From positions 131,222 to 195,221 of IMG/VR virus record IMGVR_UViG_3300026549_000033: a stretch of DNA of 64,000 nucleotides, one strand, 5' to 3'. The notes below the pieces were generated by a model. That model was given only the letters and a program-made list of their open reading frames with translations. It had not been told where the DNA came from and did not search any database. Position numbers and translations under genes: made by a program. Of this stretch, positions 940-58,234 are shown piece by piece. The DNA is from a virus (Duplodnaviria; Heunggongvirae; Uroviricota; Caudoviricetes). The stretch's first letter is position 1, and each line of letters opens with the position of its first letter.

Positions 940-1991
940 GTTTCTTACACTTCCTTATAACTTCTTCGTTCTCAGCTTGTATATCTTTAACTTTCTTAAT
1001 GGCAGCAGGGTCCCCCCATTAACTCCATATTTGGAAGAACTCTTACAGCATTAAGAGAACCGTCCTGCATCATTTCTGCCATTTTATGTGCATTCCTATC
1101 CAAAACTTTTTCTTTTCTTTTCTGCTGAAAATCTATCAACTCCCCTTCAATAAGAGAAATTAAACTTTCAAAACATTCATTAGAAAAAACTTTTTCTAAT
1201 TTACTTCTATAGTGTTGGTCTATCATAGCATTGGCATGGTCCGAGGCAGCTTTTTGAGTTTCTTTTGCAGTTTGAGGTTTTCTATTTAGCAGTCTTTCCT
1301 TAAAATCTGCCAAAGCTTTTTCATGTCTCTTATTACGAGCCCCTACAAGATTAGTACTCTTACTAAATTTAGCGTCCGCATCTAAAGCATTCTTTGTAAG
1401 AGAGTTTATTTTATCCTCAGAAGACTCAGGGTCTCTTAAGGCTGCTGTAAGCTTTCTATCCGCGTCCAAAGAATTTTGTCTTCTTTTGTCGTAAACTGCC
1501 TGAACTGTCTCTGTATCAAGCTCATTAATAAATTCTTCTACTAAACTTAATATTTCTTCAAAGCACTCATTAGAAACCGCAAAAGACTTTTCTAATTTAT
1601 TTCTCAAATGTTGGTCTATCATAGCATTACCATGTTCAGACTCTGCCCTTTGAGTTTCTTTTGCAGTCTGAGGCTTCCTATTTAATAATCTTTCTTTGAA
1701 ATCTGCTAATTTCTTTTCAAGTCTTTTATCACGCTTAGCCCTAAGGTCTTGATTCTTCTGATATTTTTCTCGAGCAACTCTTCCGTCTTCTCTCGCCTGT
1801 TGTACCTCTTCAGCGTCATAATTTCCATTATTTTTACGAACTGCTTCTAAATACTTATCAATAGCCTTTCCTTCATTCTCTCTTCTCTTCTCCGCAGAGT
1901 TATTTACAGTCTCGTCGTCAAGCTCATTGATAAATTCTTCTACTAAACTTAATATTTCTTCATACATTTTTTCCATATTAACCATCCTCAT
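932..1991 (-). CDS. Putative internal head protein with internal duplication; +1 homopolymer frameshift near 1012-1017
   Basis: Three copies of (SNECF)EEILSLVEEFINE-type motif and duplicated LADFKERLLNRKPQTAKETQ block; removing one C from the C6 run extends the frame (MGDPAAIKKVK...KHG*) to an 8-nt overlap with the next start; start may be ATG at 1976. Confidence 0.6.
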
Positions 1992-16802: not shown

Positions 16803-16812
16803 ACCTTAGAAT

Positions 16813-18087
16813 TTAATCTCCCTCTTCCTCTGTGCTCTCCTGAACATAGAAATCCTCGTGGTTTTCCTGACCTCCTTCAACCTCATATGGAATATGATTT
16901 TCATTATTGTTTTCTTCTTCAACCATAAAGTTCTGCAGCATATTACCAACATTTGAAACTACATAAGTAACCCTTTGTCTTGTATAAGGTAAAAGAGTTA
17001 CCTTACCTTTCATAGTCAACTTAGCCCGAAAAGCCATTAATGTAGGATAAACATACTTTTCAACAAATTTAGCAAATTGTGTGAAAAATGAGGCGCTCAC
17101 CATACCTACGTCTAATTCAGATTCTAAAGAAAAAGTATTTTCTTCACCCATAGGTAAAGTTTCAAACCATTGAGTTAAGACTACGTTATCAGAAGAAATT
17201 GTAAAAGGAGCCAATGATATCTCCCCTTCAAAAGGGTATTGTGTTTCAGAAGTACTTCTATCTATACCTATACAAATATATCCTCCAATTATTTCCATGG
17301 AAACAGAAGAAGGTACTACTATATAATAACTATACTTTTCTCCGTCTGTAGAAACTCTTACTGAATATTCATTTCCGTCAAAACCGAGAGTTATATAATA
17401 GTTTGTTTCGGGTCTCAATACTCTTGCGCTCACAAAAGTATCTGTTCCATCAATTTCTTGCCATGCTCTTTGACCTGAAATTTGTTGCCCTACTTTAAGA
17501 ACTACACGGCCATAAGAATCAATACCTAAATAAAACCCATGATTAACTGAGGAAGCAATACACTGGTCTTGAGTAAAGGTTCCACCTGTTCTTATCTGAA
17601 AGTTAATACTAAATTTCCCTGAAGCTGTAAAATTTGAATAAACAACATAATCATTAACAGAAAAATCTGAAACTTCATTTATTGAAGAAACAGTCGGTTC
17701 ACCAACATATGATAAAGTTAAAGCGTCATCGGGACTTCTCAAGAGCTCAAGAACTGCCTCAATTCCTCTTTTACTCCCCTTTAAATGATGAATCATGACT
17801 AAAAGGTAAACTAAAACTCGTAGACTATCATTATCTTGCCCTAACAAATCTCTGATATAGCCATAGCCGCTCTCTTCTATAATAGCTTCAACACATTCTA
17901 TAGGAAGATCTTGCGTGTTTTTATACTTACTCTCTATATTATAAAAAGCAGAAGCTAAAAGCTCTGTTTTTTCGTAGTCAGTTGACAAAATATAATCAAT
18001 TAAGGGTATAATTTTTTCTCCATACAAAGGAGTATTAACCCAGTACTGAGGAAGAAAATAACTCGCTGAATATCCTAATATGCTCAC
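16813..18087 (-). CDS. Baseplate wedge / tail protein I-like with LamG-like insert
   Basis: HHLKGSKRGIEAVL motif; follows gp6/J-like gene. Confidence 0.6.
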   Translation of the reverse strand: MSILGYSASYFLPQYWVNTPLYGEKIIPLIDYILSTDYEKTELLASAFYNIESKYKNTQDLPIECVEAIIEESGYGYIRDLLGQDNDSLRVLVYLLVMIHHLKGSKRGIEAVLELLRSPDDALTLSYVGEPTVSSINEVSDFSVNDYVVYSNFTASGKFSINFQIRTGGTFTQDQCIASSVNHGFYLGIDSYGRVVLKVGQQISGQRAWQEIDGTDTFVSARVLRPETNYYITLGFDGNEYSVRVSTDGEKYSYYIVVPSSVSMEIIGGYICIGIDRSTSETQYPFEGEISLAPFTISSDNVVLTQWFETLPMGEENTFSLESELDVGMVSASFFTQFAKFVEKYVYPTLMAFRAKLTMKGKVTLLPYTRQRVTYVVSNVGNMLQNFMVEEENNNENHIPYEVEGGQENHEDFYVQESTEEEGD

Positions 18088-41362: not shown

Positions 41363-43312
41363 ATGTTAAGAGAAGCAGAAGAACAGCTATTAAGAAGCTA
41401 CTTAAAAGAAAAGAAGATGATGTCAGACGATAACATCACCTACTTTATGAATGAGTTTGAGAAGCTCACAGAACAAGAAAAGTCTGAAGTTATCTATGAG
41501 GCTGTAGGGAAAGAGATTTATAAAACAAACCCTGTAGACGTAATAACTTTTATTGAAGATCCATACTTCTTAGGTTCTGTATATGACACCGTTTTTAAGA
41601 TATGGAAGGATATGATACAAGAAATATACCCTGCTCCTTTCTGTAAGAAGTATGACGAAGTTATTCTTTCGTGTGCTACAAGATCGGGCAAAACGTACAT
41701 GGACACTTTCGTTGCTTGCTATGAGCTGTACTTATTAACGTGCCTTATTGACCCTTTAAAAACATATTCAGTTTCAAATATAGTATTTGCACTTTTGAGT
41801 AAAGATGCGGCCACTGCGGTTTCTCAGATTGGCGGGGAAGTCTACCGCTGTTTAACGCAGTCACCGTACTTTAAAGATGTAACCAGAGACAAACTCTCAT
41901 TCTCTAAATTAGATAAAGATGGCGTAAGGGTAACAGACGATATTATTTTTAAAGCAGGTTCTTCAATAAGTACAGTTATTGGTACAAACCTATTCTATGG
42001 GGTAGTGGACGAAATAAATGCAAAACCTACTAACGTCGCGGCTGAGCACCTCATTGAAAACAGAATGAAGTTATACCAAGAAATGCGAGACAGACGTGAG
42101 TCCTCATTCTCCAAAGCTCCAAAAAGAACAGGTATGCTAATGTTTACTTCCTCTCCTACAGACGAAGGAGACGTTCTTTCAGAAATTATAGCTGATACAC
42201 AGAAAAATGGGATTCCTGGAGTTCTTATAAGAGATAATATTCCTCGTTGGGAAGCCCGTGAAGAAGATATGGACGAAACTTTTGAGTTCTTTTTAGGTTC
42301 TGACACAAAAGACCCATGTATTGTAGATGAAACTGTAGAATTAAAACCTGAAGAACTTGATAGGGTTATACAGATTCCTGCAAAAGCTGATTATTATGCG
42401 CAATTCAGTTCTGACCCTTATTTAGCAATTCAAAATATTGCAGGAAGAAGAACAATGCCTTCAATGGCCTTATTTAATACAGTAGCAGCTTTTGAAAAGG
42501 TTTTCTGTAAAGAACAAGATATATTTATGACAGATACACCTCAAATTTCTATAGATAGCTTTAGGACTTTAGAGGACTTCTTATATGACGATAAGAAGAA
42601 CTATTTCTCCCACCCTAATAGACCTGACTGCTATAGATATATTCATTTAGATATTGCGGAAAAGAAGGATAGGTTTGGTTTGGCGTCTGCATATTCTGAT
42701 AGAGTGAAATTTACAAGTGAGGATGGGCACGAGATTTATAGAAGAATGTATTTTGTGGACTTCTGTTTAGGGGTTACTGCAAAGAATAAAGAATCAGTGG
42801 ATATTCTGAAGGTATTGGAGTTTGTTTATTCATTGAAAGAGAAGGGCTATCCATTAAAGATTGTGAGTACGGACAGCCATCAGGGGGAACTAGCAAGACA
42901 AATCATAGCTAAAAAAGGTAAAGTAAAGACAGAATATCTATCCATGGAAAAAACAAAAGAACCTTACCTCAATTTAAAGAATATAATCCTCACAGGTTGT
43001 TTAGAAGGCTACAAGAATCCACCTCTTATGAGAGAACTTCGTGGTTTGAGAGAATCCCAAAAGAAAATTGAAAAAGGCAAAGGCTACACAGATGATATGT
43101 CAGACGCTTTGGCAGGTGCCTTATGGATGTGCTCTCAAGATAAGTTTTATAAGAAGAACAATGAAGCTATATCTGATATTATTCAGCAAGCAGGTAAAAT
43201 GACACTCTCAGGACCCACAGCCACAACAAGAAATATGAGAGGTCTTGCAAGAGAAATAAATAATAGGAGTCCTTTTAGAAGAAGTGACCTTGGATTTAGA
43301 TATGGTAGGTAA
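41363..43312 (+). CDS. terL: Terminase large subunit
   Basis: Walker A CATRSGKT, Walker B GVVDE, motif III TSS, nuclease HLDIA and DDMSDAL. Confidence 0.9.
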   Translation: MLREAEEQLLRSYLKEKKMMSDDNITYFMNEFEKLTEQEKSEVIYEAVGKEIYKTNPVDVITFIEDPYFLGSVYDTVFKIWKDMIQEIYPAPFCKKYDEVILSCATRSGKTYMDTFVACYELYLLTCLIDPLKTYSVSNIVFALLSKDAATAVSQIGGEVYRCLTQSPYFKDVTRDKLSFSKLDKDGVRVTDDIIFKAGSSISTVIGTNLFYGVVDEINAKPTNVAAEHLIENRMKLYQEMRDRRESSFSKAPKRTGMLMFTSSPTDEGDVLSEIIADTQKNGIPGVLIRDNIPRWEAREEDMDETFEFFLGSDTKDPCIVDETVELKPEELDRVIQIPAKADYYAQFSSDPYLAIQNIAGRRTMPSMALFNTVAAFEKVFCKEQDIFMTDTPQISIDSFRTLEDFLYDDKKNYFSHPNRPDCYRYIHLDIAEKKDRFGLASAYSDRVKFTSEDGHEIYRRMYFVDFCLGVTAKNKESVDILKVLEFVYSLKEKGYPLKIVSTDSHQGELARQIIAKKGKVKTEYLSMEKTKEPYLNLKNIILTGCLEGYKNPPLMRELRGLRESQKKIEKGKGYTDDMSDALAGALWMCSQDKFYKKNNEAISDIIQQAGKMTLSGPTATTRNMRGLAREINNRSPFRRSDLGFRYGR

Positions 43313-43349: not shown

Positions 43350-45122
43350 ATGAGCGATTTTTTAGATAACTTAGGAAAATTTATAAACGAAAGCTGTTGT
43401 GGATATTATAGCCAATCTACTTCTCAAGGTGGGGCTTCGGCAGCAGCTATAAAGGCCTTAAAAGGAATGTATGCAGTGGATACTCCTATAGGAGATTATA
43501 CTTCCTATGGTATGAATAACTCTATAAGAGGACAGGTTGCTAAACAAGCTGAATATACTCTACAGCAAAGAAACTACCTCCTTTCTCAGATTGACCGTAT
43601 CTCAGGATTTTGGATATCCCACGCAATTAAATCTTGTATAGCTTCTGATGGATTTAATGATTTATGCTCAAAGTATGATATTTTTATTCAATACACAGAT
43701 TCTGAAGACAAAGAAAAAACACAGAAATTTACAGAAGACATTAAGAAACTCTTAAAGAGAACTTCCTTTATAGATATCCTTAAAGATTGTGTAATGAATG
43801 AAGGTTTAGATTACTGCGAACTTTTTCTTTCAACTCCTGCAAGAAATGGCTACGGTATAGAATATGTTTCTGATAACCTTTCTACAAGAGAACATATAGG
43901 TATTTATAAAAATACAAATTTAATAGGGGCTATAAGATTTGAAATAACCCCAAAAGGAGCTATAAGAGGGAAAGAATTTATAAAAGCTAATGACATCTCC
44001 CATTTTCTCCTTGGCTATAAGAAAATCCCTCTTTCCATAAGTCAAAATTTCAATAAGAAATACCACATTCCTGAAAAAATTAGGTGTGCCTATCCTATTT
44101 TAACTCCTGTAATTGACATGATAATTCAATACGACCAACTTCAAAAATTACAGGCAGCTCTTGAGATGATTAAAGCAACACAACCTATTGTAATGGGTGT
44201 TGGCGTTTCTGCTGAAAATAATATATCTGATATTATAGGTCAACTTCAAGAGTGGGGTTTAACTCTTAACGAGAATAAAAATAATATTATTGGTAACTTA
44301 GATACATGTGATACAGCAAGTATCATGCAGTCTATGTTTAATATTTTAATGATACCTTATTCAGTTGAGGAAGGTGTTAACTCCTTAAGACAAGTAGCAA
44401 TAGATTTCCCTAATAGTAATCTTCCTCAAGTTTTGGATGATTTAAGAAGAAGTATAGCATTAGCTATAGGTATTCCTGAGGATTATATAGCTCTAGCAAA
44501 TGGATCAAAAGAAAATAAGGACGACCACATATCCACAAATCCAAGATATTCAAAAATGTTAAGTATGATACAACAATCTCTTGCTAAGGGTGTAGTGGAT
44601 TTTATCTATAAACATTTAACTACAAGATATACAAATTCAGAAGGAATACTTACTCAAACTGTAGATAAAGATAAGATTGAAGTACTATTTAAGTCTTCAA
44701 CAAATATTAACAATAAACTTGAAGAAGAACGGTTAATGCTTAAAGCTGAAAATATGAGTAATATGGTGAACGTCATAGATAGTATAGCGTCTTCACCAAA
44801 TATACCTGCAAAAGTTAAAGGTGATAATTTCTTACAATATTGGTATACAGAAATGGAGAAAAATCCATTCTTGCGTGATATTTTTGAGAAGATGACACCT
44901 GAGGAAATGCAAGCTCAGTATGGCCCTGATATGGAACCAAATACAGGAGATGAGGCTCAAGGAGCAGAAAAAGGTGGAGAACAACCTGCTGAAAAACCAC
45001 AAAAAGGTGAAAAGCAAGAAGTTGAACCTCAGCAAAAGCAAGAAGTTGAACAAGTTGTAAAAGAACCTCAAGAAACTGCGGATACTAAAGAGGAAGAAGT
45101 AATTAGAAATACGTTTCAATAA
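43350..45122 (+). CDS. Portal protein (T4 gp20-like)
   Basis: Follows terminase; LRRSIALAIGIPEDY...RYSKMLSMIQ portal-type motif. Confidence 0.75.
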   Translation: MSDFLDNLGKFINESCCGYYSQSTSQGGASAAAIKALKGMYAVDTPIGDYTSYGMNNSIRGQVAKQAEYTLQQRNYLLSQIDRISGFWISHAIKSCIASDGFNDLCSKYDIFIQYTDSEDKEKTQKFTEDIKKLLKRTSFIDILKDCVMNEGLDYCELFLSTPARNGYGIEYVSDNLSTREHIGIYKNTNLIGAIRFEITPKGAIRGKEFIKANDISHFLLGYKKIPLSISQNFNKKYHIPEKIRCAYPILTPVIDMIIQYDQLQKLQAALEMIKATQPIVMGVGVSAENNISDIIGQLQEWGLTLNENKNNIIGNLDTCDTASIMQSMFNILMIPYSVEEGVNSLRQVAIDFPNSNLPQVLDDLRRSIALAIGIPEDYIALANGSKENKDDHISTNPRYSKMLSMIQQSLAKGVVDFIYKHLTTRYTNSEGILTQTVDKDKIEVLFKSSTNINNKLEEERLMLKAENMSNMVNVIDSIASSPNIPAKVKGDNFLQYWYTEMEKNPFLRDIFEKMTPEEMQAQYGPDMEPNTGDEAQGAEKGGEQPAEKPQKGEKQEVEPQQKQEVEQVVKEPQETADTKEEEVIRNTFQ

Positions 45123-45139: not shown

Positions 45140-45475
45140 ATGGATATTTTTGAAAGTTTGGAAAATTTGAATGTCTCTGAAGAATGTTTTAACGAGATAA
45201 TGGGATTAGTGGAAGAATATATAAGTGAAACTTCTGACGAAAGAGCCCATGCAGCTTCAGAAGAATCCCACAAGAGATATAATAACGCTCGTAATGCGTA
45301 TGACACGACTAAAACAATGATTGATAGAAATAAGAAGAATAAGTTCTTTTCTGCTGAAGAAATAAAAGAACTTAAAGATAAGTTAAAACAGCAAAAACAA
45401 GAACTTAAAAATGCTGAAAGAATTTCTGTAAGGGATAATAAAAATCAATTTAATAGAGATAAGAGATTAAAATAA
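45140..45475 (+). CDS. Putative internal head protein
   Basis: N-terminal VSEECFNEIMGLVEEYISE tag followed by a basic domain. Confidence 0.6.
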   Translation: MDIFESLENLNVSEECFNEIMGLVEEYISETSDERAHAASEESHKRYNNARNAYDTTKTMIDRNKKNKFFSAEEIKELKDKLKQQKQELKNAERISVRDNKNQFNRDKRLK

Positions 45476-45481
45476 GTAAAG

Positions 45482-45515
45482 AAAGCACCTCCCCACAGGT
45501 GCTTTTTCTTTTCTT
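45482..45515 (+). terminator. Intrinsic terminator
   Basis: AAAGCACCT-6nt-AGGTGCTTT plus T tract. Confidence 0.75.
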
Positions 45516-45575
45516 TTTCTTCCTGATTAAATTATAACCTTAGATAATATTATTTAATAAGGAAAGGCTTTTATA

Positions 45576-48398
45576 ATGTCAGACATATTAGAAGAAATAC
45601 AGGAATTAAGTAACAAATTCAGTAATTTATTTGAAGTAGACGGAGACGGTTTGGGAAATCCTGCAGTAGACGTTCCTCCTTCTCAAAATAAAATTAAAAG
45701 GGATAGAAGAACAAAAGACGGTAAAGTAGAGGTTGTTTCTGTAGAGGATGAATTATTCCCTTATGATGGAAACAAAAGAGAACAATATAGACAAAAAATT
45801 CTTGATACAATAAATAATATGATACAAGGTACCGCTACTTTGGAAGATTTGTTGCAGATTGTAAGACAGAAAAAAGCTCCTTTAAAAGAAGCTATGGAAT
45901 TGATGGAAGATACTATTTCTTACATTCAAAAACAAGAACAGCCTATCCTTAAAAAAGGAAGAGCAAATGCTTTAAGAAAACTTTCTAACAACTCAGAGCT
46001 CAAGAATAAGTTCAAAAAACTTGGTAAAGAAGACGCAGAAATGGTTTCAGCAGCTTTTAATTCAAAAAAAGACCAAGAAAAATTAGAAAAATTAGGCAGT
46101 TTAAGACGAAAAGCTCAAGACGTAAAGATGAAGGATTGGCAACAAATGGGAAATCCTCGTAGAAAGACCAAGAATGAGATAGGAGCTGAAAAAACAGAAG
46201 CTAGAAGATATGGGGAAACTTATCGTGAAGATAAGGGGTATGATAGAGTTGATACAGACGAGCCTATTCCATATCATATAGGAGACTCAAAAGGGTATCC
46301 CCATTATGAAGAACCTAAATCTGATAAGCAAAGAATAAAGGATTCAATAGCTCGTCATGAAAAAAAGAATTCTTTGAAAGAAGCTATGGAATTGATGGAA
46401 GATATAAGGTCTGCTATAGAGAAGAAACATGGAAAACCTGAGTATTATAGCGGGAGAAGCCCCTGGCAAGTAGGGCGTGAACCTGCTAATAAATCTGCTG
46501 AATTGACACAAAAAGCAAATGAAATTAAAGAAAAAGAAGCTCTTCAAGCAGCAGAAAGAGAATTAGATAAAGATAGACCTGATTTGAAAGACGCTCATCC
46601 CGCAAAAAAGAACTATAAAGTAGCAGACTATTATGGTCAAATAATGGCAAGAAGAAATGGAAAAGCTCCTTTAAAAGAAGCTATGGAAGTTCTTGAAGAT
46701 ATCTATACTATGATAGATAAGAAATATCCTGAAGGCTCAAGAAAGAAGTCATTATTAAAAATAAAAGCTCAAAATAATAGGTTAAGGTCTTATCATGATA
46801 TGGATTCAAGAAAACCCATTAATGGGGAAAATAGCATTGATAAAGCTATAGGGGCGTACACTAAAAATGCTAAGGGTAATGCTAAAACTGATAGTAGAAG
46901 AGATGTTGTAGACCAAGAGTACGCTAATTTAGATAGGAAAAACGATCCTGAAGGTAAAAAAGCAACTCAGAAGTCCATTGATCGTCATTTTGATAAGGTA
47001 CTGTATAAACCTTTAAAGAGTCAAGCAAATATAACAAGAAAAGCTGTAGCAACGGAAAAGTTTAAAAGAATGAATTCTGAAGCTTTAGAAGAAGCTATAG
47101 AACTAATGGAAGAACTCCTTTTAGAAAGAAACAAAGAAAATAGAGATAAAAAAGAAAAGTGGGAATTAAAAACTAATAATATCACTAAGAAATATAAGAA
47201 AGCTATTCAGGATTATGCGAAGCAGGAAGGAGACGAAGCTAAATTTCATAGAGCAGCGGCAGCAGACTACGACCATATTTACTCACAGCAACCTGCTAAG
47301 GCTCCTGATGGTTCTCCTAATTCTGTAGCAGCGTATTTCAATGACAAATATCAAGAAATGCTTAGAAATAAAGGTAGAAATGAGCAAAACATAGCTGACG
47401 AGGTAGAACCTTTAACTAAGAAACTAAAGAACAGAAAGCACTCTTTCCATGATAGAGTTAGAGGATGGACAGAATCAGAAGTTTTAGAGGAAGCTATGAA
47501 AGTTCTTGAAGAATTAATTGGTGAAGGTAGAAATTTAGAAGACGTTGTTGTAAGAGGATATAATAAAGGTAAAGTTCCTTTAGACGACTTACAGAAGTTA
47601 ATGGATAAGGCTCACGAAGTTCCTTCTGACTCTTCATACTTTCACAAATCTAAAGGTGAAAAAGGTGAGCTGAGAACTAAACATCGTCATATGGATTATG
47701 AACGTAATGTTCTTTCAGACGGTTGGGGAAAAGACGATAACAAAAAAATTGAAGCTTCTATAAAAAGAAAAGCAAAAAATGATAAATCTTTCCCTGTCTT
47801 TCAAGCATTAAAAGCTTATAAAGAGGGTAAAGCTGATCTTAAAGAAGCTCTTTCCCTTACAGAAGAAATAATAAATGAAGTTTCTGTAAAAAAGTGGAAA
47901 GAAGCTGCTAAGAATTCTATCGAAGGAAGAAAAGAAGCAGCAAGTGACGCTTCTGATAGATTTGGAGAAGTAGTTTATCCCTTCAGAGGTGAAGTTAATG
48001 ACCCCGGCCATAAATTAGGTAATGCTTGGGATAAAGCTGAGCAGAGAGCTGATAGAGCTGAACAGTTAGCTAAAAATTTACCTGACAGTAATAAATCTGC
48101 TACAAAGCTAAAGCAAGCTGCTAAAAAAGTGGTAGATAAAAGAGATAAGGATAATGAAGAAGCTGTAGATAAATTGCAAGGTGTTATAGACAAGTTCAAA
48201 GAAAAACCTTATGATGAACGTACAGATAAAGATTATTCTGATTTGGCTAAAGTTCAGAATGAATGGGTTGATAAACAGAAAAAAGAAAACCAAGCTCGTA
48301 ATTTAGTGGGTAAACCTGAAAGAAGACCTGAGAAGAACTCTGAAGGCAAGCACAAGCTTAAGGAACAGGGTTTTATTGATAGAAGTAAAGAAGCATAG
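45576..48398 (+). CDS. Putative internal head polyprotein (7 modules, 6 LxEAxExxE(D/E) linkers)
   Basis: Linkers LKEAMELMED x2, LKEAMEVLED, LEEAIELMEE, LEEAMKVLEE, LKEALSLTEE separating unrelated charged modules. Confidence 0.6.
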   Translation: MSDILEEIQELSNKFSNLFEVDGDGLGNPAVDVPPSQNKIKRDRRTKDGKVEVVSVEDELFPYDGNKREQYRQKILDTINNMIQGTATLEDLLQIVRQKKAPLKEAMELMEDTISYIQKQEQPILKKGRANALRKLSNNSELKNKFKKLGKEDAEMVSAAFNSKKDQEKLEKLGSLRRKAQDVKMKDWQQMGNPRRKTKNEIGAEKTEARRYGETYREDKGYDRVDTDEPIPYHIGDSKGYPHYEEPKSDKQRIKDSIARHEKKNSLKEAMELMEDIRSAIEKKHGKPEYYSGRSPWQVGREPANKSAELTQKANEIKEKEALQAAERELDKDRPDLKDAHPAKKNYKVADYYGQIMARRNGKAPLKEAMEVLEDIYTMIDKKYPEGSRKKSLLKIKAQNNRLRSYHDMDSRKPINGENSIDKAIGAYTKNAKGNAKTDSRRDVVDQEYANLDRKNDPEGKKATQKSIDRHFDKVLYKPLKSQANITRKAVATEKFKRMNSEALEEAIELMEELLLERNKENRDKKEKWELKTNNITKKYKKAIQDYAKQEGDEAKFHRAAAADYDHIYSQQPAKAPDGSPNSVAAYFNDKYQEMLRNKGRNEQNIADEVEPLTKKLKNRKHSFHDRVRGWTESEVLEEAMKVLEELIGEGRNLEDVVVRGYNKGKVPLDDLQKLMDKAHEVPSDSSYFHKSKGEKGELRTKHRHMDYERNVLSDGWGKDDNKKIEASIKRKAKNDKSFPVFQALKAYKEGKADLKEALSLTEEIINEVSVKKWKEAAKNSIEGRKEAASDASDRFGEVVYPFRGEVNDPGHKLGNAWDKAEQRADRAEQLAKNLPDSNKSATKLKQAAKKVVDKRDKDNEEAVDKLQGVIDKFKEKPYDERTDKDYSDLAKVQNEWVDKQKKENQARNLVGKPERRPEKNSEGKHKLKEQGFIDRSKEA

Positions 48399-48410
48399 AG
48401 GTTAAGAATA

Positions 48411-49979
48411 ATGAGTATTTCAGAAAAATGTTTTAATGAAGTAATAGAATTAGTAGAAGAATATATAAATGAGCTTAATGCAGCTACGGTTAATAATGCT
48501 TTAAATAAAAGAATTGACCAAGACATAGAAGCTGACGAAAAAGATAGAGTTAATTTTAATAATATTCTTAAAATAAAAGACAGAGACGAGAGAGCTAAAG
48601 CTTATAAGGACTTCAAGAAAAAGTATGACGAAAGAAATGCTATAATAGATAAAAGAATGGATAGGTATGAAGCTTATGCAAAAAGACATCCTGAAATCCT
48701 TGAAGCTGTAGAAAAGTACGTAGATAATGACGGAAATACTCATGAACTTGAGTTCAGTGCTAATAAGAATAAGTATAAATTTGACCATAAAATAAATGGA
48801 AAATCTGTAGTTTCAGCAGTAGATTCCGAACCTAATGCAAATTATGAAAGAAAGCATGCTATTAAAAACTATGGCCTTAAAAAGGTAGAAGAAGCTCTTT
48901 CTCTTATGGAGGAAATTATAAATGAAGTTTCTATAGGTAAATGGAAAGAAGCTGCTAAGAGTTCTTTACCTAAGAGGAAAGAAGAAGCTGAGAAAGCTGA
49001 GGCTACTTCAAAACAAATATGGAAAGATTATGAAGAAGGAGTAAAAAAGTCTCCTGAAGATGAAGAGACTCTTTACAAAAGAGCTTCTTATGACGACGCT
49101 GCAAATTATGACGATAAAATTAAAAAAGGAAGTAGGGCAGACCACGCAGAGGCGGTGGCTGACCTTAATGTTTCTAATGAAAAGTCATCTGCGAATAAGC
49201 TACTGAAGGCAGCTTCTAAAGTTTCAAACAATAGGGAAGACGAATTTGGAAGAAACCCAAGTGCAAGAACTTTAAAGAGAGCAGTTAAAGCAGGGAATTT
49301 AGCTTATAACGACCCTATAACTTCGAGGTCTGAATTTAATTTTAAATCAGAGGCTCTCATAGAAGAAGCTGACCACCATGCTAATTCAAAGAACCCTGTA
49401 GTTAAGATAACGGATAAAAATTACAGAGTAGCTTCAGGGAAATCTCTTCCCGGCCCTTTTAATAAAAATCATGTAGGACAATACATTGTTTATAATAAAG
49501 ATACAGACGCTTCTTATTTAGTAACTCCCGATAATTGGAAGAAATCTAAAATAAAAAGAGACTTAGAAAGACAAGGCAAATTTTATGAAGCCTTAGAAGA
49601 AGCTATAAGTGCTCTTTTGGAATATACTGAAGCAGATAAAAAGAAAGCAGCTAAGAAAGTTCTTGACGATAGAAAAAGAGAATACCTTTCTAAATATGCT
49701 AATGTTTTGGACGCTGCAGATATAGACGGTTCTGAGAATGTTCCTGACGGAGACATGAAAGATTTGGAAAGAGCAGAAAAAAGATACGAGCATGCTAAAA
49801 AGGTAGCAAATGAAGCTTTGGAAGAAACTCTTAAGATTTTAGAGCTTTTTGATAGACCTGATTTATTGAATGATATAGATACAGCTTTAGGGTCTCCTAT
49901 AAAGAAAACTTTTCAGAAAGCTATAAGTAGCATAACAGCTCCTAAGAAAGAGAAAAAAGTTAAAGAGTGTAAGAAGTAA
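48411..49979 (+). CDS. Putative internal head polyprotein
   Basis: ISEKCFNEVIELVEEYINE, EEALSLMEEIINE, EALEEAISALLE, EALEETLKILE. Confidence 0.6.
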   Translation: MSISEKCFNEVIELVEEYINELNAATVNNALNKRIDQDIEADEKDRVNFNNILKIKDRDERAKAYKDFKKKYDERNAIIDKRMDRYEAYAKRHPEILEAVEKYVDNDGNTHELEFSANKNKYKFDHKINGKSVVSAVDSEPNANYERKHAIKNYGLKKVEEALSLMEEIINEVSIGKWKEAAKSSLPKRKEEAEKAEATSKQIWKDYEEGVKKSPEDEETLYKRASYDDAANYDDKIKKGSRADHAEAVADLNVSNEKSSANKLLKAASKVSNNREDEFGRNPSARTLKRAVKAGNLAYNDPITSRSEFNFKSEALIEEADHHANSKNPVVKITDKNYRVASGKSLPGPFNKNHVGQYIVYNKDTDASYLVTPDNWKKSKIKRDLERQGKFYEALEEAISALLEYTEADKKKAAKKVLDDRKREYLSKYANVLDAADIDGSENVPDGDMKDLERAEKRYEHAKKVANEALEETLKILELFDRPDLLNDIDTALGSPIKKTFQKAISSITAPKKEKKVKECKK

Positions 49980-50264
49980 ATGCAAGACAACATACAAGGA
50001 GCAATCTCCAAAGCAGAGTTTAAAATAAAGAATGGAAAGCTTAAGATAAAAAAGGTTAAGCTTAAATCTGACGTTGCTGATAAAATAGACGAACTTTCAG
50101 CAAAAGTAATGAATGATACTGTTCCTGTGCAAGTTCGTAAAAAGATAAATAAAGAAGTAAGAGACGATATAAACCCCGCTAAAGGAGCTCATAATATTGT
50201 TGCAGACACTAAAGCTAAAATCTCTAAGGAAATAGGTAGAGATTTAGGTATGGATATGTCTTAA
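49980..50264 (+). CDS. Small basic hypothetical protein
   Basis: 94-aa ORF abutting the previous stop. Confidence 0.55.
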   Translation: MQDNIQGAISKAEFKIKNGKLKIKKVKLKSDVADKIDELSAKVMNDTVPVQVRKKINKEVRDDINPAKGAHNIVADTKAKISKEIGRDLGMDMS

Positions 50265-52802: not shown

Positions 52803-53831
52803 ATGGAGAATCAAGTAAAAAGTTTTTTAGAAGAAGGTTATGATTTTATTGAAGAGAGTTTTTCTGCAGAACCATTAACATACACAGAAGTTGAAGATTA
52901 TGAAATATCTGAAGCTGAAGCAGAAAAAAGTCCTTATAAAATATTAGGTAAATGCTGTGGTAACTTCCAACCTATTGGTGTACAATCACGAAATTCAAGA
53001 ATTTATGAGAATGACCACTGGAATGTTCAACTATTAAAACCTGAAGTTCAGGAAAGATTAAAGTCTCGTTCTATGATGGGTACTTTGGGGCACTTTGATA
53101 GAAAAGTAACAGACGAAGATATTAGAGAAGGTAGAGTTTCTCACTTAGTTACGAAATTAGAAGTTCATGAAGATAAAAATGGAAAACCTTTCTTATATGG
53201 AGAACTTGAAATATTAGATACTCCTGCGGGTAGAATTCTTGAAGCTATGTACAAAGGTGGGGCAAACCTTTATGTTTCAAGTAGAGGTGCAGGTAAATTA
53301 ATTTCAGTTCCTGGGGATATGCTGAAACACGTTGATAAAGATTCTTTCTATTTTGAGGGATTTGACGTAGTTAAGTCTCCTGGGTTTTTACAAGCACGCC
53401 CTGTTTATGAGGGAGTTTCGGAAGACAAGAAGGAAGTTGTTCATGAATCAAAAGAGGAGGGTGTTTCAGTTTCTAAATTTGAACCTATTTCAGTTTCTGA
53501 ATTTGAACCTGTAACCGTAGTTACTGAAAAACAAGTTGAAGAACTTAAAGGTCAGATAGATAAACTTGCTAAGATAGTTGAAAAAGTAGTAGACGACGTT
53601 TATGAAGAACCTGTAGAGGAGTCAAAAGAAAAACCTGAAGAAAAGGTTATGGCAGAAAAACCTGCTGAACCTGAACATATGCAAGAGCAACCTATAGTTC
53701 CTCCGAAGAAAGAAAAAGCAAATGAAGCTCTTGCAGAATTTGTTTCTCTGATGGCTTCAACAAATATTTCAGAAGAAGCTTTCGAACAGATTATAGATAC
53801 TATAGCTAAGGCAAGAGGAGTACAGGAATAA
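52803..53831 (+). CDS. Prohead core protease (T4 gp21-like)
   Basis: NSRIY, MGTLGH, VSH, ILDTPAGRIL, VSSRGAG, FDVV.SP. Confidence 0.9.
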   Translation: MENQVKSFLEEGYDFIEESFSAEPLTYTEVEDYEISEAEAEKSPYKILGKCCGNFQPIGVQSRNSRIYENDHWNVQLLKPEVQERLKSRSMMGTLGHFDRKVTDEDIREGRVSHLVTKLEVHEDKNGKPFLYGELEILDTPAGRILEAMYKGGANLYVSSRGAGKLISVPGDMLKHVDKDSFYFEGFDVVKSPGFLQARPVYEGVSEDKKEVVHESKEEGVSVSKFEPISVSEFEPVTVVTEKQVEELKGQIDKLAKIVEKVVDDVYEEPVEESKEKPEEKVMAEKPAEPEHMQEQPIVPPKKEKANEALAEFVSLMASTNISEEAFEQIIDTIAKARGVQE

Positions 53832-55435
53832 TGAATTACGCTTCCCTTTTTAATATACTTTATTCAGTAGAAATTTCTGAGGATACAAAAACCGATATTA
53901 TAAATAAAATAGATTACCCTGTTCAGGAAGCTTATGAAGTAGAACCTTTGGTAGAAACTTATTTAGAACTTATAGATACTTTAGTATTTTCTACAGCTTC
54001 AGAAGCTCTTATATATAATATTATAGATGAAACTTTTGCTTCTTTAAGTGAAGAATTTATAAATGAAGTTTCTAATGAATGGATTAAAAGAAAAACCGAA
54101 GCAGGGTTAAAATCAAGAGAGCAAGCTGTTAAAAGAGCTAACGATAGTGTAAAGAGTGGAGTTATTGGTTTATCACAATTAAATAGACAAGATAAAGCAC
54201 AGCAAAGATTAGATAAAGGAAGAGCTCAAGTAGCTGCAAGAACTCCGAATACCGTTGAGCCGAAAGCAGAAACTCCTAAAGCTGAGGGTGCTATGGGTAA
54301 GTTAAAATCTGCTGTAGGTAAAGTTAAAAAATGGGCAAGCGGAGCAGATGATAGTTCTAATTATGTTGGATTATCTCGTTTAATTGGAGCTAAAGCAAAT
54401 AAAGATAACATAGGAGCAGAAACATTAAGAAAGCAAACTACAGAAAAAACAGAAGCTCCAAAAGCTGAAACTACACAACCTGAAGTTAAAACTGAAGCTC
54501 CTAAGAAAACGAAAGCTACTAAGACTGCTAAAGTTGAAGCTCCAAAAGCTGAAACTACACAACCTGAAGTCAAAGCTGAAGCTCCTAAGAAAACAAAAGC
54601 TACTAAGACTACTAAGACTGCTAAAGTTGAAGCTCCAAAAGCTGAAACTAAACAACCTGAAGTTAAAGCTGAAACTAAACAACCTGAAGTTAAAGCTGAA
54701 GTTAAGGGTGAAGACGCAACAAAGGCAGTTAAAAAAGGAGCTGTTAAAGCTACGGATAACACTGCTAAAGATATAGTAAAAAATGCTAAAAAGAAAGTTA
54801 TGAAAGCAGTAGATACTAAGGCTAAAGCGGAAACTTCAAAAGTAGAGGATAAGAAAGAAGAAGTTAAACAACCTGAAGTAAAAGCAGAAGCTAAGAAAGA
54901 GGAAGTTAAAGCTGAAGCTAAACAACCTGAAGTAAAAGCAGAAGCAAAACCTAAAAAAACTGAAGCTGAAAGATACGAAGCAAAAATGAGAAGGGAAGCT
55001 GAAGCAAGACGTAAAGACCAAGAGAGAGTTCTTCAGATTTTAAAGGATCAAAAGACATCAATGGTATCAAAACCGGGGTATGACGCAAAAGAAGCTCAAG
55101 ATTTAGATAAAAGAATATCTGATTTAGAGAAAAGATTAGGTGACGCTAAAGTACATGAAGCTTTGTCTGATTTAGTTCTTCTTTTACTTAACACAAATAT
55201 CTCGGAATCTTGTTTTGTGGAGGTAATGGAAATGGCAGGAGCAAATAAAGCTAATGCTTTAAAAGTAAAAGATAGATATGACCATGATATGAATACTTCT
55301 TTAGATGATATAAATAAAGATTTAGAGGATGGCAAACCTATGGATATGGAAAAGGTTAAAAAAGCCGAAGAAATAATGAAAAAGAAGGAACACTTTGAAG
55401 AGTTGTTTAAGAAAAAATTCAATGATAATAAGTAA
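53831..55435 (+). CDS. Prohead core/internal protein with Lys-Ala-Glu-Pro repeats
   Basis: EAPKAETTQPEVK repeats; EEFINE and ISESCFVEVME tags. Confidence 0.6.
   Translation: MNYASLFNILYSVEISEDTKTDIINKIDYPVQEAYEVEPLVETYLELIDTLVFSTASEALIYNIIDETFASLSEEFINEVSNEWIKRKTEAGLKSREQAVKRANDSVKSGVIGLSQLNRQDKAQQRLDKGRAQVAARTPNTVEPKAETPKAEGAMGKLKSAVGKVKKWASGADDSSNYVGLSRLIGAKANKDNIGAETLRKQTTEKTEAPKAETTQPEVKTEAPKKTKATKTAKVEAPKAETTQPEVKAEAPKKTKATKTTKTAKVEAPKAETKQPEVKAETKQPEVKAEVKGEDATKAVKKGAVKATDNTAKDIVKNAKKKVMKAVDTKAKAETSKVEDKKEEVKQPEVKAEAKKEEVKAEAKQPEVKAEAKPKKTEAERYEAKMRREAEARRKDQERVLQILKDQKTSMVSKPGYDAKEAQDLDKRISDLEKRLGDAKVHEALSDLVLLLLNTNISESCFVEVMEMAGANKANALKVKDRYDHDMNTSLDDINKDLEDGKPMDMEKVKKAEEIMKKKEHFEELFKKKFNDNK
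54450..54960 (+). repeat. Coding tandem repeats (KAETxQPEV / EAPKKTKATKT)
   Basis: Near-identical DNA units such as gaagctccaaaagctgaaactacacaacctgaagt. Confidence 0.8.
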
Positions 55436-56608: not shown

Positions 56609-58234
56609 ATGGAGTTTACACAAATGGCAAAATTCAACAACTTAGAACAAGTAAAAAAAGAATTTTTACTTAGATCAAACGGTGGAGAAAAATTAGGTCT
56701 TCATCAAACTCGTTACAGCGACTTGGACAAATATGCTCCAATCGTTGAAAGACTTTTAGACACAGATTACAACAAAGCGTCTGGTTTCTCATTCTCAGAA
56801 TTGATGGAAGCAGTTTCATTAGTTGCTGACAACTATAGCTCAGCTGACTATGCTAACGCTATCAAAAGAGACCCGCAAGCTGTAAAATTGGACGAATCTT
56901 TGGGTAGAACAGTTGAAGGTGAAAACAACTTCTGGGCTATCTCTGAAGCATTGAACCCTGCAACTACAGCTCAGGCTCCTTACCCTGTTCCGTCAATTGC
57001 GTTGACAACTTATCAGTATGAAAAATCAGTTCTTCCGTATTTGTGTCACCAATTCGACCTTAAAGGTAATCGTGGTTTAGTTTATTACCAAAAAATTAAT
57101 GCTGAAAATGCTAAAGGTAATATTAAAGAAAACGATTTGTTAGGTTCTCCTAAAGAAATGAGCAAACAGCCTTTAGACTTCGTTGGTACTAAAACTGTTG
57201 AAAAAGAAGAATTAGGAACATTGGCTACAGGTGAAACTGATGTAACTGCTACATTAGAATACTTCCCAATCCAACCTGGTTCTTTGGTTATCAACGTTGA
57301 AGGTATGACAGGTTACTTCAAAGACTTTGCTCAAGAAGGAAATCCTGAAGTTGCTGCTCTTTACGCAATCGGTGGTGATTTGGGTAAAGCTACAGTTAAC
57401 TACAAAACTGGTGAAGTTACTATTGAATTGGCTACAGCAGCTGTTCAATCAGGTGGAAAAGTTTATGCTACTTACGCTAGAGACGTTGAAACTGTTGAAG
57501 GCGGAAAAGCTAACATGGCTAGAGTTCAAGTTTCTCTTGAATCTAAACAGTTAGAAGCAGAAGACTTCTCTGTATTCACAGAAACTTCTATCTACCAAGA
57601 AGCACTTTCTAAAGCAATCTTTGGTTTAGATTGGAACTCTCAAGTAGATGAAGCTTTGGCTGCATTGTACAACAAAGAAGTTGCTAACAAAATCGTTGCT
57701 GAAATTAAAGCAGCTATCCCTGCTGAATCAGTAAAAACTCACTCTTTGAACAAAATTGGTGGTGGAAACAACGATTTATTCAACGTACAATTCATTTCTG
57801 TAGTACTTGGTAAATTGGGTGCTTTAATCACTGCAGCTTCTGGTCTTGGTAACAACCAATTGTCAGCTATTGTTATCAATATTGACGTATTACCTATCTT
57901 CAAAGCTCTTCCGAAATTCACAGCTGCTAATGCTGATTTCGAAGAAACTATGGGTGGTATGTTCTTGGCTGGTCTGTATGACGGTATGCCTGTTATCGTT
58001 GGTTTCGATCCAATTGTAACTACTGGCGAAGTCATCGGTATCTACAAAGGTAAGAAAGATTTCTTAACTCCTTATTGTTGGGGTACTTTCATTCTTCCTA
58101 TCATCAGAGATATCTTCGACCAAGACAACTTGGCTGTAAATCGTAAACAGTTAATCGCTTCTGCTGCAGGTGCTGTAGTTGCTGAAAGATTGGCTGCTAA
58201 GATTACTATAACAGATATTGACGATGTTATCTAA
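56609..58234 (+). CDS. Major capsid protein (T4 gp23-like)
   Basis: Gene order, optimised codons, AISE/A cleavage-like site, HK97-type C-terminal motifs, strong terminator. Confidence 0.85.
   Translation: MEFTQMAKFNNLEQVKKEFLLRSNGGEKLGLHQTRYSDLDKYAPIVERLLDTDYNKASGFSFSELMEAVSLVADNYSSADYANAIKRDPQAVKLDESLGRTVEGENNFWAISEALNPATTAQAPYPVPSIALTTYQYEKSVLPYLCHQFDLKGNRGLVYYQKINAENAKGNIKENDLLGSPKEMSKQPLDFVGTKTVEKEELGTLATGETDVTATLEYFPIQPGSLVINVEGMTGYFKDFAQEGNPEVAALYAIGGDLGKATVNYKTGEVTIELATAAVQSGGKVYATYARDVETVEGGKANMARVQVSLESKQLEAEDFSVFTETSIYQEALSKAIFGLDWNSQVDEALAALYNKEVANKIVAEIKAAIPAESVKTHSLNKIGGGNNDLFNVQFISVVLGKLGALITAASGLGNNQLSAIVINIDVLPIFKALPKFTAANADFEETMGGMFLAGLYDGMPVIVGFDPIVTTGEVIGIYKGKKDFLTPYCWGTFILPIIRDIFDQDNLAVNRKQLIASAAGAVVAERLAAKITITDIDDVI

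Follow-up and report, generated by a model that had tools for sequence, protein, structure and literature searches.

A variable phage locus of exchangeable modules and repeated helical joints, probably a version of the T4 internal-protein system built on polyproteins

The internal proteins of phage T4 are the textbook case of protein injection together with phage DNA, and in the T-even phages the genes for these proteins exchange at their conserved leader. Here, we describe a locus of a tailed phage (Caudoviricetes) that is centered on two consecutive genes for modular proteins of 940 and 522 amino acids (aa), P0001 (45576..48398, + strand) and P0002 (48411..49979, + strand). The locus is contained in a window of 64,000 nucleotides (nt), positions 131,222 to 195,221 of virus record IMGVR_UViG_3300026549_000033; this 64-kb window is the final part of the 195,221-bp record, which has direct terminal repeats, and all coordinates refer to the window. 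In T4, a 10-residue N-terminal propeptide, the capsid targeting sequence, is common to otherwise unrelated internal proteins, and the head protease gp21 cuts after L/I-x-E, which was first found at a Glu-Ala bond (PMC9026906, PMC12373910). Replacement of Glu by Asp in the capsid targeting sequence stops processing (PMC9026906). All three T4 internal proteins block GmrSD-type restriction enzymes (PMC12373910). In the phiKZ-like phages, the protease is auto-processed at its own C-terminus (PMC5694885, PMC7411985, PMC10052503).

The results presented below suggest that the locus is probably a variable head-cargo locus, and specifically a polyprotein version of the T4 system of internal proteins and capsid targeting sequence. 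An acidic helix would dock the cargo proteins to the prohead core during assembly, the head protease would then cut after conserved Glu residues of this helix, and the freed basic modules would stay with the DNA and would probably be ejected with it. Docking to the prohead core, cleavage, DNA retention, and ejection are steps that we infer, together with a role in anti-defence or DNA packing. An earlier note on this DNA had already proposed that a gp21-like protease cuts the two proteins into injected or DNA-condensing peptides. Cleavage, packaging, injection, and condensation are suggested indirectly, because the genes stand in a head-gene context with a late motif, hydrophobic-x-Glu is avoided in the modules, and hydrophobic-x-Glu sites are found in the putative capsid propeptide.

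In both proteins, mutually dissimilar, mostly basic modules are parted by copies of a joint with the pattern L-[KE]-E-A-h-E-h-h-E-[DE]-h-h (h, hydrophobic residue). The 940-aa open reading frame (ORF) contains six joints, in agreement with the earlier note: four sites match LxEAxExxE[DE] literally (aa 103, 267, 366, and 504), and the copies at aa 637 and aa 755 are one position off the literal pattern. All six are on the + strand, namely joint 1 (45882..45911, aa 103-112, LKEAMELMED), joint 2 (46374..46403, aa 267-276, LKEAMELMED), joint 3 (46671..46700, aa 366-375, LKEAMEVLED), joint 4 (47085..47114, aa 504-513, LEEAIELMEE), joint 5 (47484..47513, aa 637-646, LEEAMKVLEE), and joint 6 (47838..47867, aa 755-764, LKEALSLTEE), which is extended by IINEVS. 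For the 522-aa ORF, about five linkers had been claimed, and this number also held. Four clear joints were found with a hidden Markov model (HMM), at aa 8, 159, 395, and 470 (nt 48432-48461, 48885-48914, 49593-49622, and 49818-49847, + strand), and two degenerate ones, at aa 96 (ILEAVEKYV, nt 48696-48722) and aa 313 (SEALIEEADHH, nt 49347-49379; both + strand), were recognized because relatives show breakpoints or a leader at these places. Both 28-bp identities that had been reported between joints were exact (45885-45912 and 46377-46404; 45872-45899 and 46661-46688), i.e. joint 1 is identical to joint 2, and likewise to joint 3, over 28 bases. Where the two joints of a pair have the same residue, the codons were identical in 183 of 256 cases, versus 137 expected from the codon use of the same genes; codon bias thus explains only part of the DNA identity of the joints.

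For the two ORFs, searches of large protein collections yielded 77 and 60 relatives, as well as 175 clusters at 50% identity. Scans of IMG/VR and JGI yielded one close and five further loci, and most relatives from ENA and Logan were studied as proteins. All of these relatives come from metagenomes; they are unnamed proteins, and no Pfam domain was found in any of them. In 219 metagenomic relatives, joints occurred in 0-8 copies per protein, with a median spacing of 119 aa. The consensus of 123 distinct joints of the relatives is ..KK-A-P / L-[KE]-E-A-[MLI]-E-[LVI]-[ML]-E-[ED]-[LI]-[IL]-x-E-[IV].., and three positions are nearly or fully invariant: +2 is Glu in 123/123, +3 is Ala in 119/123, and +8 is Glu in 119/123. 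With L/I/V at positions 0 and +6, the hydrophobic-x-Glu motif is present in the joint. Internal translation starts at the Met codons of the joints were considered as well, and this idea was rejected because the Met is not conserved (58/123 at +4 and 71/123 at +7). A joint HMM was built from 147 joints of relatives without any segment of at least 90% identity shared with the window proteins. When the 577 ORFs of the 195-kb genome were searched with it, the ten best matches were ten joints of the window (E 6e-6 to 0.04), and rank 11 was another leader-bearing ORF. The hydrophobic residues of the joint are found at positions 0, 3, 4, 7, 10, 11, and 14; this spacing is therefore an amphipathic-helix pattern, and by prediction the joint is an amphipathic helix of about 17 residues with an acidic face. 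Its isoelectric point (pI) is about 4.1, compared with 9.1-10.0 for modules B to G.

The helix is also found at the N-termini of stand-alone proteins. The 111-aa gene upstream of P0001 (45140..45475, + strand) encodes an N-terminal bipartite leader (aa 1-32, nt 45140-45235, + strand; MDIFESLENLNVSEECFNEIMGLVEEYISE) that is followed by one small module, and P0002 starts with the N-terminal leader MSISEKCFNEVIELVEEYINE. In short single-module proteins of the relatives, the leader has the form M..IFESLENLN[VI]SEECF[ND][DE]I..[LI]VEE.INE, and it precedes module B (P0163), module D (P0208), or module G (P0129). The close IMG/VR relative L002 has five small leader genes around a 762-aa polyprotein, and in L002 and L011 several genes of the 111-aa leader type adjoin the portal gene. 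In alignment A2, N-terminal leaders of stand-alone genes were in register with the internal joints that precede the identical module, and joint 6 was in register with the leaders of G modules. As judged from this alignment, the joint is the equivalent of the second half of the N-terminal leader (..N[IV]SEECFN[ED]I..LVEE.INE..). The locus thus contains unrelated small proteins with a common short leader, one of the features of T4-type capsid-targeted cargo.

A leader HMM that was built from relatives only recovered three proteins of this genome, i.e. the 111-aa ORF (E 3.5e-12), the start of P0002 (E 4e-10), and P0222 (E 9e-7 for the whole protein). P0222 is a third leader-bearing multi-module protein of 331 aa (996..1991, - strand), in which three leader copies (nt 1920-1961, 1518-1559, and 1137-1169) are arranged around a tandemly duplicated module of about 130 residues. 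The P0222 gene is far from the head genes. The stretch EIINEVSxxKWKEAAKxS had been described as a module that both polyprotein genes have in common. It is indeed common to both genes (77 nt with 86% identity), but its EIINEVS part was assigned to an extended type of joint, not to a module, because relatives place other modules after EIINEVS.

A related sequence was found at the C-termini of two head proteins. The first is the 342-aa product of 52803..53831 (+ strand), which had been taken for a gp21-like protease in the earlier note. This assignment is supported: the protein matched PHROG 207 ("head maturation protease") with E 4e-28, and a tblastn search retrieved proteins annotated as prohead proteases in T4-like cyanophages, in a Pelagibacter phage, and in Rhizobium phages. 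In alignment A4, which contains six proteases including those of Prochlorococcus phage P-TIM68 and of a Rhizobium phage, a GH motif (H97) and a VSSRG motif (S159) were invariant, and H97 and S159 are presumably the catalytic residues. The score against Pfam PF03420 (S77) was 18.9 bits, under the cut-off of 27, and phmmer found no gp21 match to the protease among the PDB sequences. The second protein is a scaffold-like, repeat-rich protein of 534 aa (53831..55435, + strand). The tag is located at aa 307-337 of the protease (nt 53721-53813, + strand; ..EALAEFVSLMASTNISEEAFEQII..) and at aa 442-472 of the 534-aa protein (nt 55154-55246, + strand; ..EALSDLVLLLLNTNISESCFVEVM..), which also has an EEFINEVS stretch near aa 75. 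Both C-termini resemble the bipartite cargo leader. A tag HMM was built from four C-termini, those of the protease and the scaffold-like protein of the window and of L002. It matched cargo leaders in register, with E 4.5e-6 to 1e-3 among the relatives, and its best non-self matches in the own genome were the 111-aa ORF (7e-4) and P0002 (6.5e-3). The protease tag is kept in L002 and L014 at a protease identity of 43-58% (43% in L014), and the tag of the scaffold-like protein is conserved in L002 and L012. On the strength of these profile matches, the joint and leader are related to the tag that the protease and the scaffold-like protein carry C-terminally.

The description of the joints as protease-type linkers had to be modified accordingly. 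A candidate cut site is indeed contained in them, but they are not merely short linkers, as the helix of about 17 residues equals the leader of stand-alone proteins and is akin to the tag of the protease and the scaffold-like protein. As a predicted function, a capsid address plus a cut site fits the joint better than a cut site alone. In L014, a 195-kb relative, a nucleotidyltransferase domain (PF01909, 24.9 bits; cut-off 21) was found in a tagged protein of 421 aa (L014:13531-14796), and the domain is followed by a joint, a full leader at an internal position, and a small basic module. This protein was the sole tagged one found with a known enzyme domain, and therefore the tag can accompany an enzyme too. 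A bolder version of the proposal would be a position-independent address helix, N-terminal, internal, or C-terminal, that is common to the protease, the scaffold-like protein, and all cargo, so that equimolar chains of exchangeable proteins, occasionally enzymes, would be loaded, cut, and injected against host defences. We put this version forward tentatively, as a possibility for which we would not claim even odds.

Exposure of the modules to a head protease was assessed by motif counts. For 187 non-redundant module bodies, the counts were compared with those of shuffled versions of the same bodies, and the other 130 proteins of the genome served as comparison. [LIVMF]-x-E was found less often than expected in the module bodies (observed/expected 0.81, z -5.2), while its ratio was 1.14 in the other 130 proteins, where hydrophobic-x-Glu motifs gave 1.14-1.18. 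[LI]-x-D was found more often than expected (1.57, z +8.9, versus 1.21 in the other proteins), and so was [LI]-x-K (1.22, z +5.3, versus 1.13). The avoidance of hydrophobic-x-Glu in the module bodies would fit exposure to a Glu-specific head protease. L-K-E/A and L-M-E/[DE], where the slash marks the cut, are the candidate cut sites in the joint; in L014, the second candidate site is uniformly L-A-E/A. The major capsid protein (541 aa, 56609..58234, + strand) was identified by tblastn to the capsid proteins of other phages, and these alignments begin at aa 97-127. In alignment A5 of three sequences (window, L012, and L004), four of five invariant Glu residues in capsid aa 1-118 have L/I/V/A at P3. 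The conserved hydrophobic-x-Glu sites are E47, E67, E96, and E113, and the last two are just ahead of the conserved core. Taken together, the N-terminal approximately 118 residues of the capsid protein (window 56609-56960) are likely to be a propeptide with several cut sites.

The proteins might also function without being cut, as a multivalent protein of the core or an inner body in which the helices dock or self-associate, the modules are spacers or DNA-binding segments, and the chain stays whole. The length of the joint, far above that of a protease site, and its heptad-like spacing of hydrophobic residues would agree with such a role, as would module A as a conserved anchor and the helical and disordered models of the modules, and the case for polyprotein cleavage is an indirect one. 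However, single-module genes with the helix as N-terminal leader show modules working alone. Moreover, an uncut protein leaves the joint Glu-Ala, its second Glu, and the avoidance of hydrophobic-x-Glu unexplained, as these features make sense with a Glu-specific protease. We thus regard the uncut protein as unlikely and prefer cleavable cargo.

The variability of the modules was analyzed by painting the relatives with the window's own modules; a single-linkage clustering of modules was dropped because it yielded one giant cluster. Modules B to J are variable, and modules with 95-100% identity adjoin unrelated ones. Examples of module orders are A-C-D-E-F-G, A-x-C-E-F-G, and A-C-x-E-F-x-x-G. 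In some relatives the two genes are fused (..G-H-I, or A..H-I-J-K), and in a few the order is changed (A-I-F, or G-I-J-A-K). Gain, loss, swap, and between-gene moves of modules were thus all found, as the proposal of module swapping had implied, but the order is mostly collinear, with modules present, absent, or replaced, and is truly rearranged in some relatives only. Breakpoints, defined as internal ends of segments with at least 85% identity in the 219 relatives, fell within the 16-residue joint core in 45% of the cases, versus 9.5% of random positions, and the median distance from breakpoint to joint was 1 residue, versus 38 for random positions. In P0005 and P0007, the left flank of joint 1 is fused to the right flank of joint 2, which is an exact loss of module B. 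This junction is the product that would be expected from recombination between the 28-bp identical joints.

The DNA of the window and of L002 is also mosaic. The sub-module at 48702-48932 of P0002 is found inside the long polyprotein of L002 with 92% identity, and the sub-module at 49349-49604 is a stand-alone 152-aa leader gene in L002. Not all breakpoints are at joints, e.g. L002 retains just the final third of module D. Together, the joint-centered breakpoints, the recombinant junction in P0005 and P0007, and the painted relatives bear out the idea that linker DNA allows module swapping. As read from these junctions, they show that near-identical joint DNA serves as short homology for module gain, loss, exchange, and between-gene moves. 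In the smaller relative L004, the portal gene is followed almost directly by a gene for a protease-scaffold fusion and the capsid gene, and the cargo locus is absent; because L004 lacks it, the locus is regarded as accessory.

This pattern of exchange also bears on a further explanation, namely sacrificial scaffold or core proteins like gp22, gp67, and gp68 of T4, which would be loaded by the helix, cut, and expelled before DNA packaging, with a module diversity that reflects weak constraint. Near-identical modules (95-100%) in otherwise different proteins argue against weak constraint and point to the exchange of useful units, and the depletion of candidate cut sites in the module bodies suggests that the modules survive proteolysis. 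L004 is without the locus and yet has protease, scaffold, and capsid genes, and the tagged protein of one relative has a nucleotidyltransferase domain. Sacrificial proteins would be compatible with the head-gene context, with the charged, helical, low-complexity-like nature of the modules, and with the related motifs in the 534-aa scaffold-like protein. On balance, we consider this explanation quite improbable, and retained cargo remains the favored reading.

The earlier observation that the modules are dissimilar was confirmed by BLASTP, in which no pair of modules was similar except G (aa 767-940 of the long ORF) and I (aa 171-394 of the short ORF), with E 7.5e-7. Two elements are conserved. 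Module A (aa 1-102 of the 940-aa protein), which precedes six joints and the six variable basic modules B to G, is an N-terminal anchor with about 196 relatives and the invariant sequence SV.DELFPY.G. P0002 has a leader, joints, and the C-terminal tail K (aa 482-522), which is the conserved terminus of P0002-type proteins. The cargo modules are small, with about 60-170 residues, mostly basic, and helical or disordered. No family match for the cargo proteins was obtained when both polyproteins, P0222, and the neighbouring proteins were scanned with Pfam and PHROG, and the polyproteins had no match in megablast and tblastn searches against 50,697 phage records. AlphaFold2 models of modules G and A, each with its joint (predicted local distance difference test, pLDDT, 61.5 and 59.8), were helical and partly disordered. 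A Foldseek comparison of the module models with viral models returned nothing under E 0.3, and the ESM Atlas model of the whole protein (pLDDT 0.43) had no useful neighbour.

The cargo locus sits between the portal gene and the genes for the protease, the scaffold-like protein, and the capsid protein. Upstream are the genes for the large terminase (41363-43312) and a portal-like protein (43350-45122). P0002 starts 12 nt past the end of P0001. Immediately 3' of P0002, a conserved basic protein of 94 aa and pI 9.7 is encoded (49980..50264, + strand), in which no leader was found; its ORF has 85% DNA identity in L002 and is present in L010 and L014 too. Two opposite-strand genes separate the 94-aa ORF from the protease gene, and a gene for a very acidic 323-aa protein is located between the 534-aa gene and the capsid gene. 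The motif ATTAAATT is found at 45526..45533 (+ strand), 43 nt upstream of the 940-aa ORF, and further copies are 5' of the portal (43320), protease (52752), 323-aa (55458), and capsid (56566) genes. The distance to these five head-locus genes is 30-75 nt, and the window contains 38 matches versus 17 expected. From its placement, ATTAAATT looks like a late-promoter element.

That the late motif of the polyprotein operon is identical to that of the head genes, and that the position from portal to protease is conserved in all close relatives examined, argues against late DNA-binding or regulatory proteins outside the virion. Such proteins would use the repeated helix for oligomerization, and their position among head genes would be incidental. 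Their basic modules could bind DNA in the cell, and the case for packaging into the head is an indirect one; nevertheless, the tag shared with the protease and the scaffold-like protein, which carry it C-terminally, also speaks against non-virion proteins, which we judge very improbable compared with proteins loaded into the head.

Several further features of the region were noted. A GC-rich hairpin with a T-run at about 45476-45515 resembles an intrinsic terminator and parts the 111-aa leader gene from the polyprotein operon. The middle of the 534-aa protein (window 54350-54780) consists of tandem Lys/Thr/Pro/Glu-rich repeats (PKAETTQPEVK.EAPKKTKATKT-like), and the L002 counterpart has a different repeat at the equivalent place. 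The large terminase is longer in relatives, with 1029 aa in L004 (L004:4647-7736) and 796 aa in L002 (L002:1565-3955), versus 649 aa in the window; the extra segment in L004 is intein-like by eye, and the L002 gene has an insertion of 444 nt relative to the window. A leaderless gene for about 200 aa (start MDKFRAL.IYAKSLLR) is found among the cargo genes of relatives (L002:12490-13092; L014:10863-11492 and 16271-16867), and it is not among the ORFs listed at the locus of the window.

Several points weigh against a polyprotein version of the T4 system. The phage is uncultured and was read from its sequence alone. The capsid, portal, and protease proteins lack the full joint motif, and the length of the joint is therefore not explained by protease specificity alone; the position of the cut is a guess. 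In L014, a hydrophobic residue is not always found three positions ahead of the first conserved Glu. In the opposite direction to the tag HMM, the leader HMM matched the C-terminus of the protease weakly, with E values of 0.06-2; one such search of the protease and the 534-aa protein gave E 0.1 and 0.6-2, and the protease match (E 0.6-2) was not significant. The breakpoint events are not independent, because the counted proteins are related. With pLDDT values of about 60, confidence in the AlphaFold models is low, and they matched no known fold. Lastly, the polyproteins showed no sequence homology to the internal proteins of T4 and matched no Pfam or PHROG family, and the likeness to the T4 internal proteins is thus functional and not one of homology.

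If the favored reading is true, a distant lineage of uncultured phages has made the T4 principle into a cassette system in which one helix is both leader and joint. The modules would be swappable units, which the polyproteins would deliver in fixed ratios. Tag, joint, and cut-site avoidance would provide a sequence rule for packaged cargo in metagenomic phages, and the locus would open a pool of small proteins that may counter host defences or affect DNA packing. It would also represent a natural design for the loading of several proteins into phage capsids. Furthermore, the comparative data show how the evolution of modular proteins can be driven by conserved DNA of about 28 bp in the joints.

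Full-text literature searches on capsid targeting combined with polyproteins in phages yielded no account of joints of this kind. The closest system is that of the T4 internal proteins IPI, IPII, IPIII, and Alt (PMC9026906, PMC3012670, PMC12373910), in which unrelated small basic proteins likewise share only a short acidic leader with a hydrophobic-x-Glu motif, and a protease of the gp21 family is encoded nearby. In both cases the locus is variable and non-essential-looking, and the leader DNA is a conserved element between variable genes. In contrast to T4, the leader is reused internally here, with up to eight modules fused per polypeptide, and the conserved helix has about 17 residues, or about 30 with the N-terminal half, instead of 10. 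A further difference is the related tag that the protease and the scaffold-like protein have at their C-termini, and the present system, which has no sequence homology to the T4 proteins, is known from its genes alone. The propeptide proteins of phiKZ, 201phi2-1, and SPN3US (PMC5694885, PMC7411985, PMC10052503) are similar in that a diverged gp21 homologue cuts many proteins of the head interior after Glu, and paralogues share conserved N-terminal propeptides with several cut sites. They differ in that each has a single long N-terminal propeptide (at least about 100 residues) and in their S/A-x-E motif, and they are not chains of unrelated modules with a repeated joint.

Two further groups of proteins were compared. 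Polyvalent proteins (Iyer et al. 2017, PMC5512222) are also long mosaics near virion genes, have extensively shuffled domains, and by prediction are packaged together with the DNA and delivered along with it. However, they contain recognizable enzyme domains and sometimes their own peptidase domain, and a repeated address or cleavage joint is lacking. Several conflict-related enzyme domains characterize that class, whereas the Pfam scan found no domain in either polyprotein. The polyproteins of RNA viruses and retroviruses resemble the present ones in that one product has a repeated recognition sequence between functional units, which are equimolar. Those polyproteins comprise essential replication and structural proteins in a fixed order, whereas the units of the phage locus are accessory and variable and are encoded by separate genes as well, and the joint presumably acts as a capsid address at the same time.

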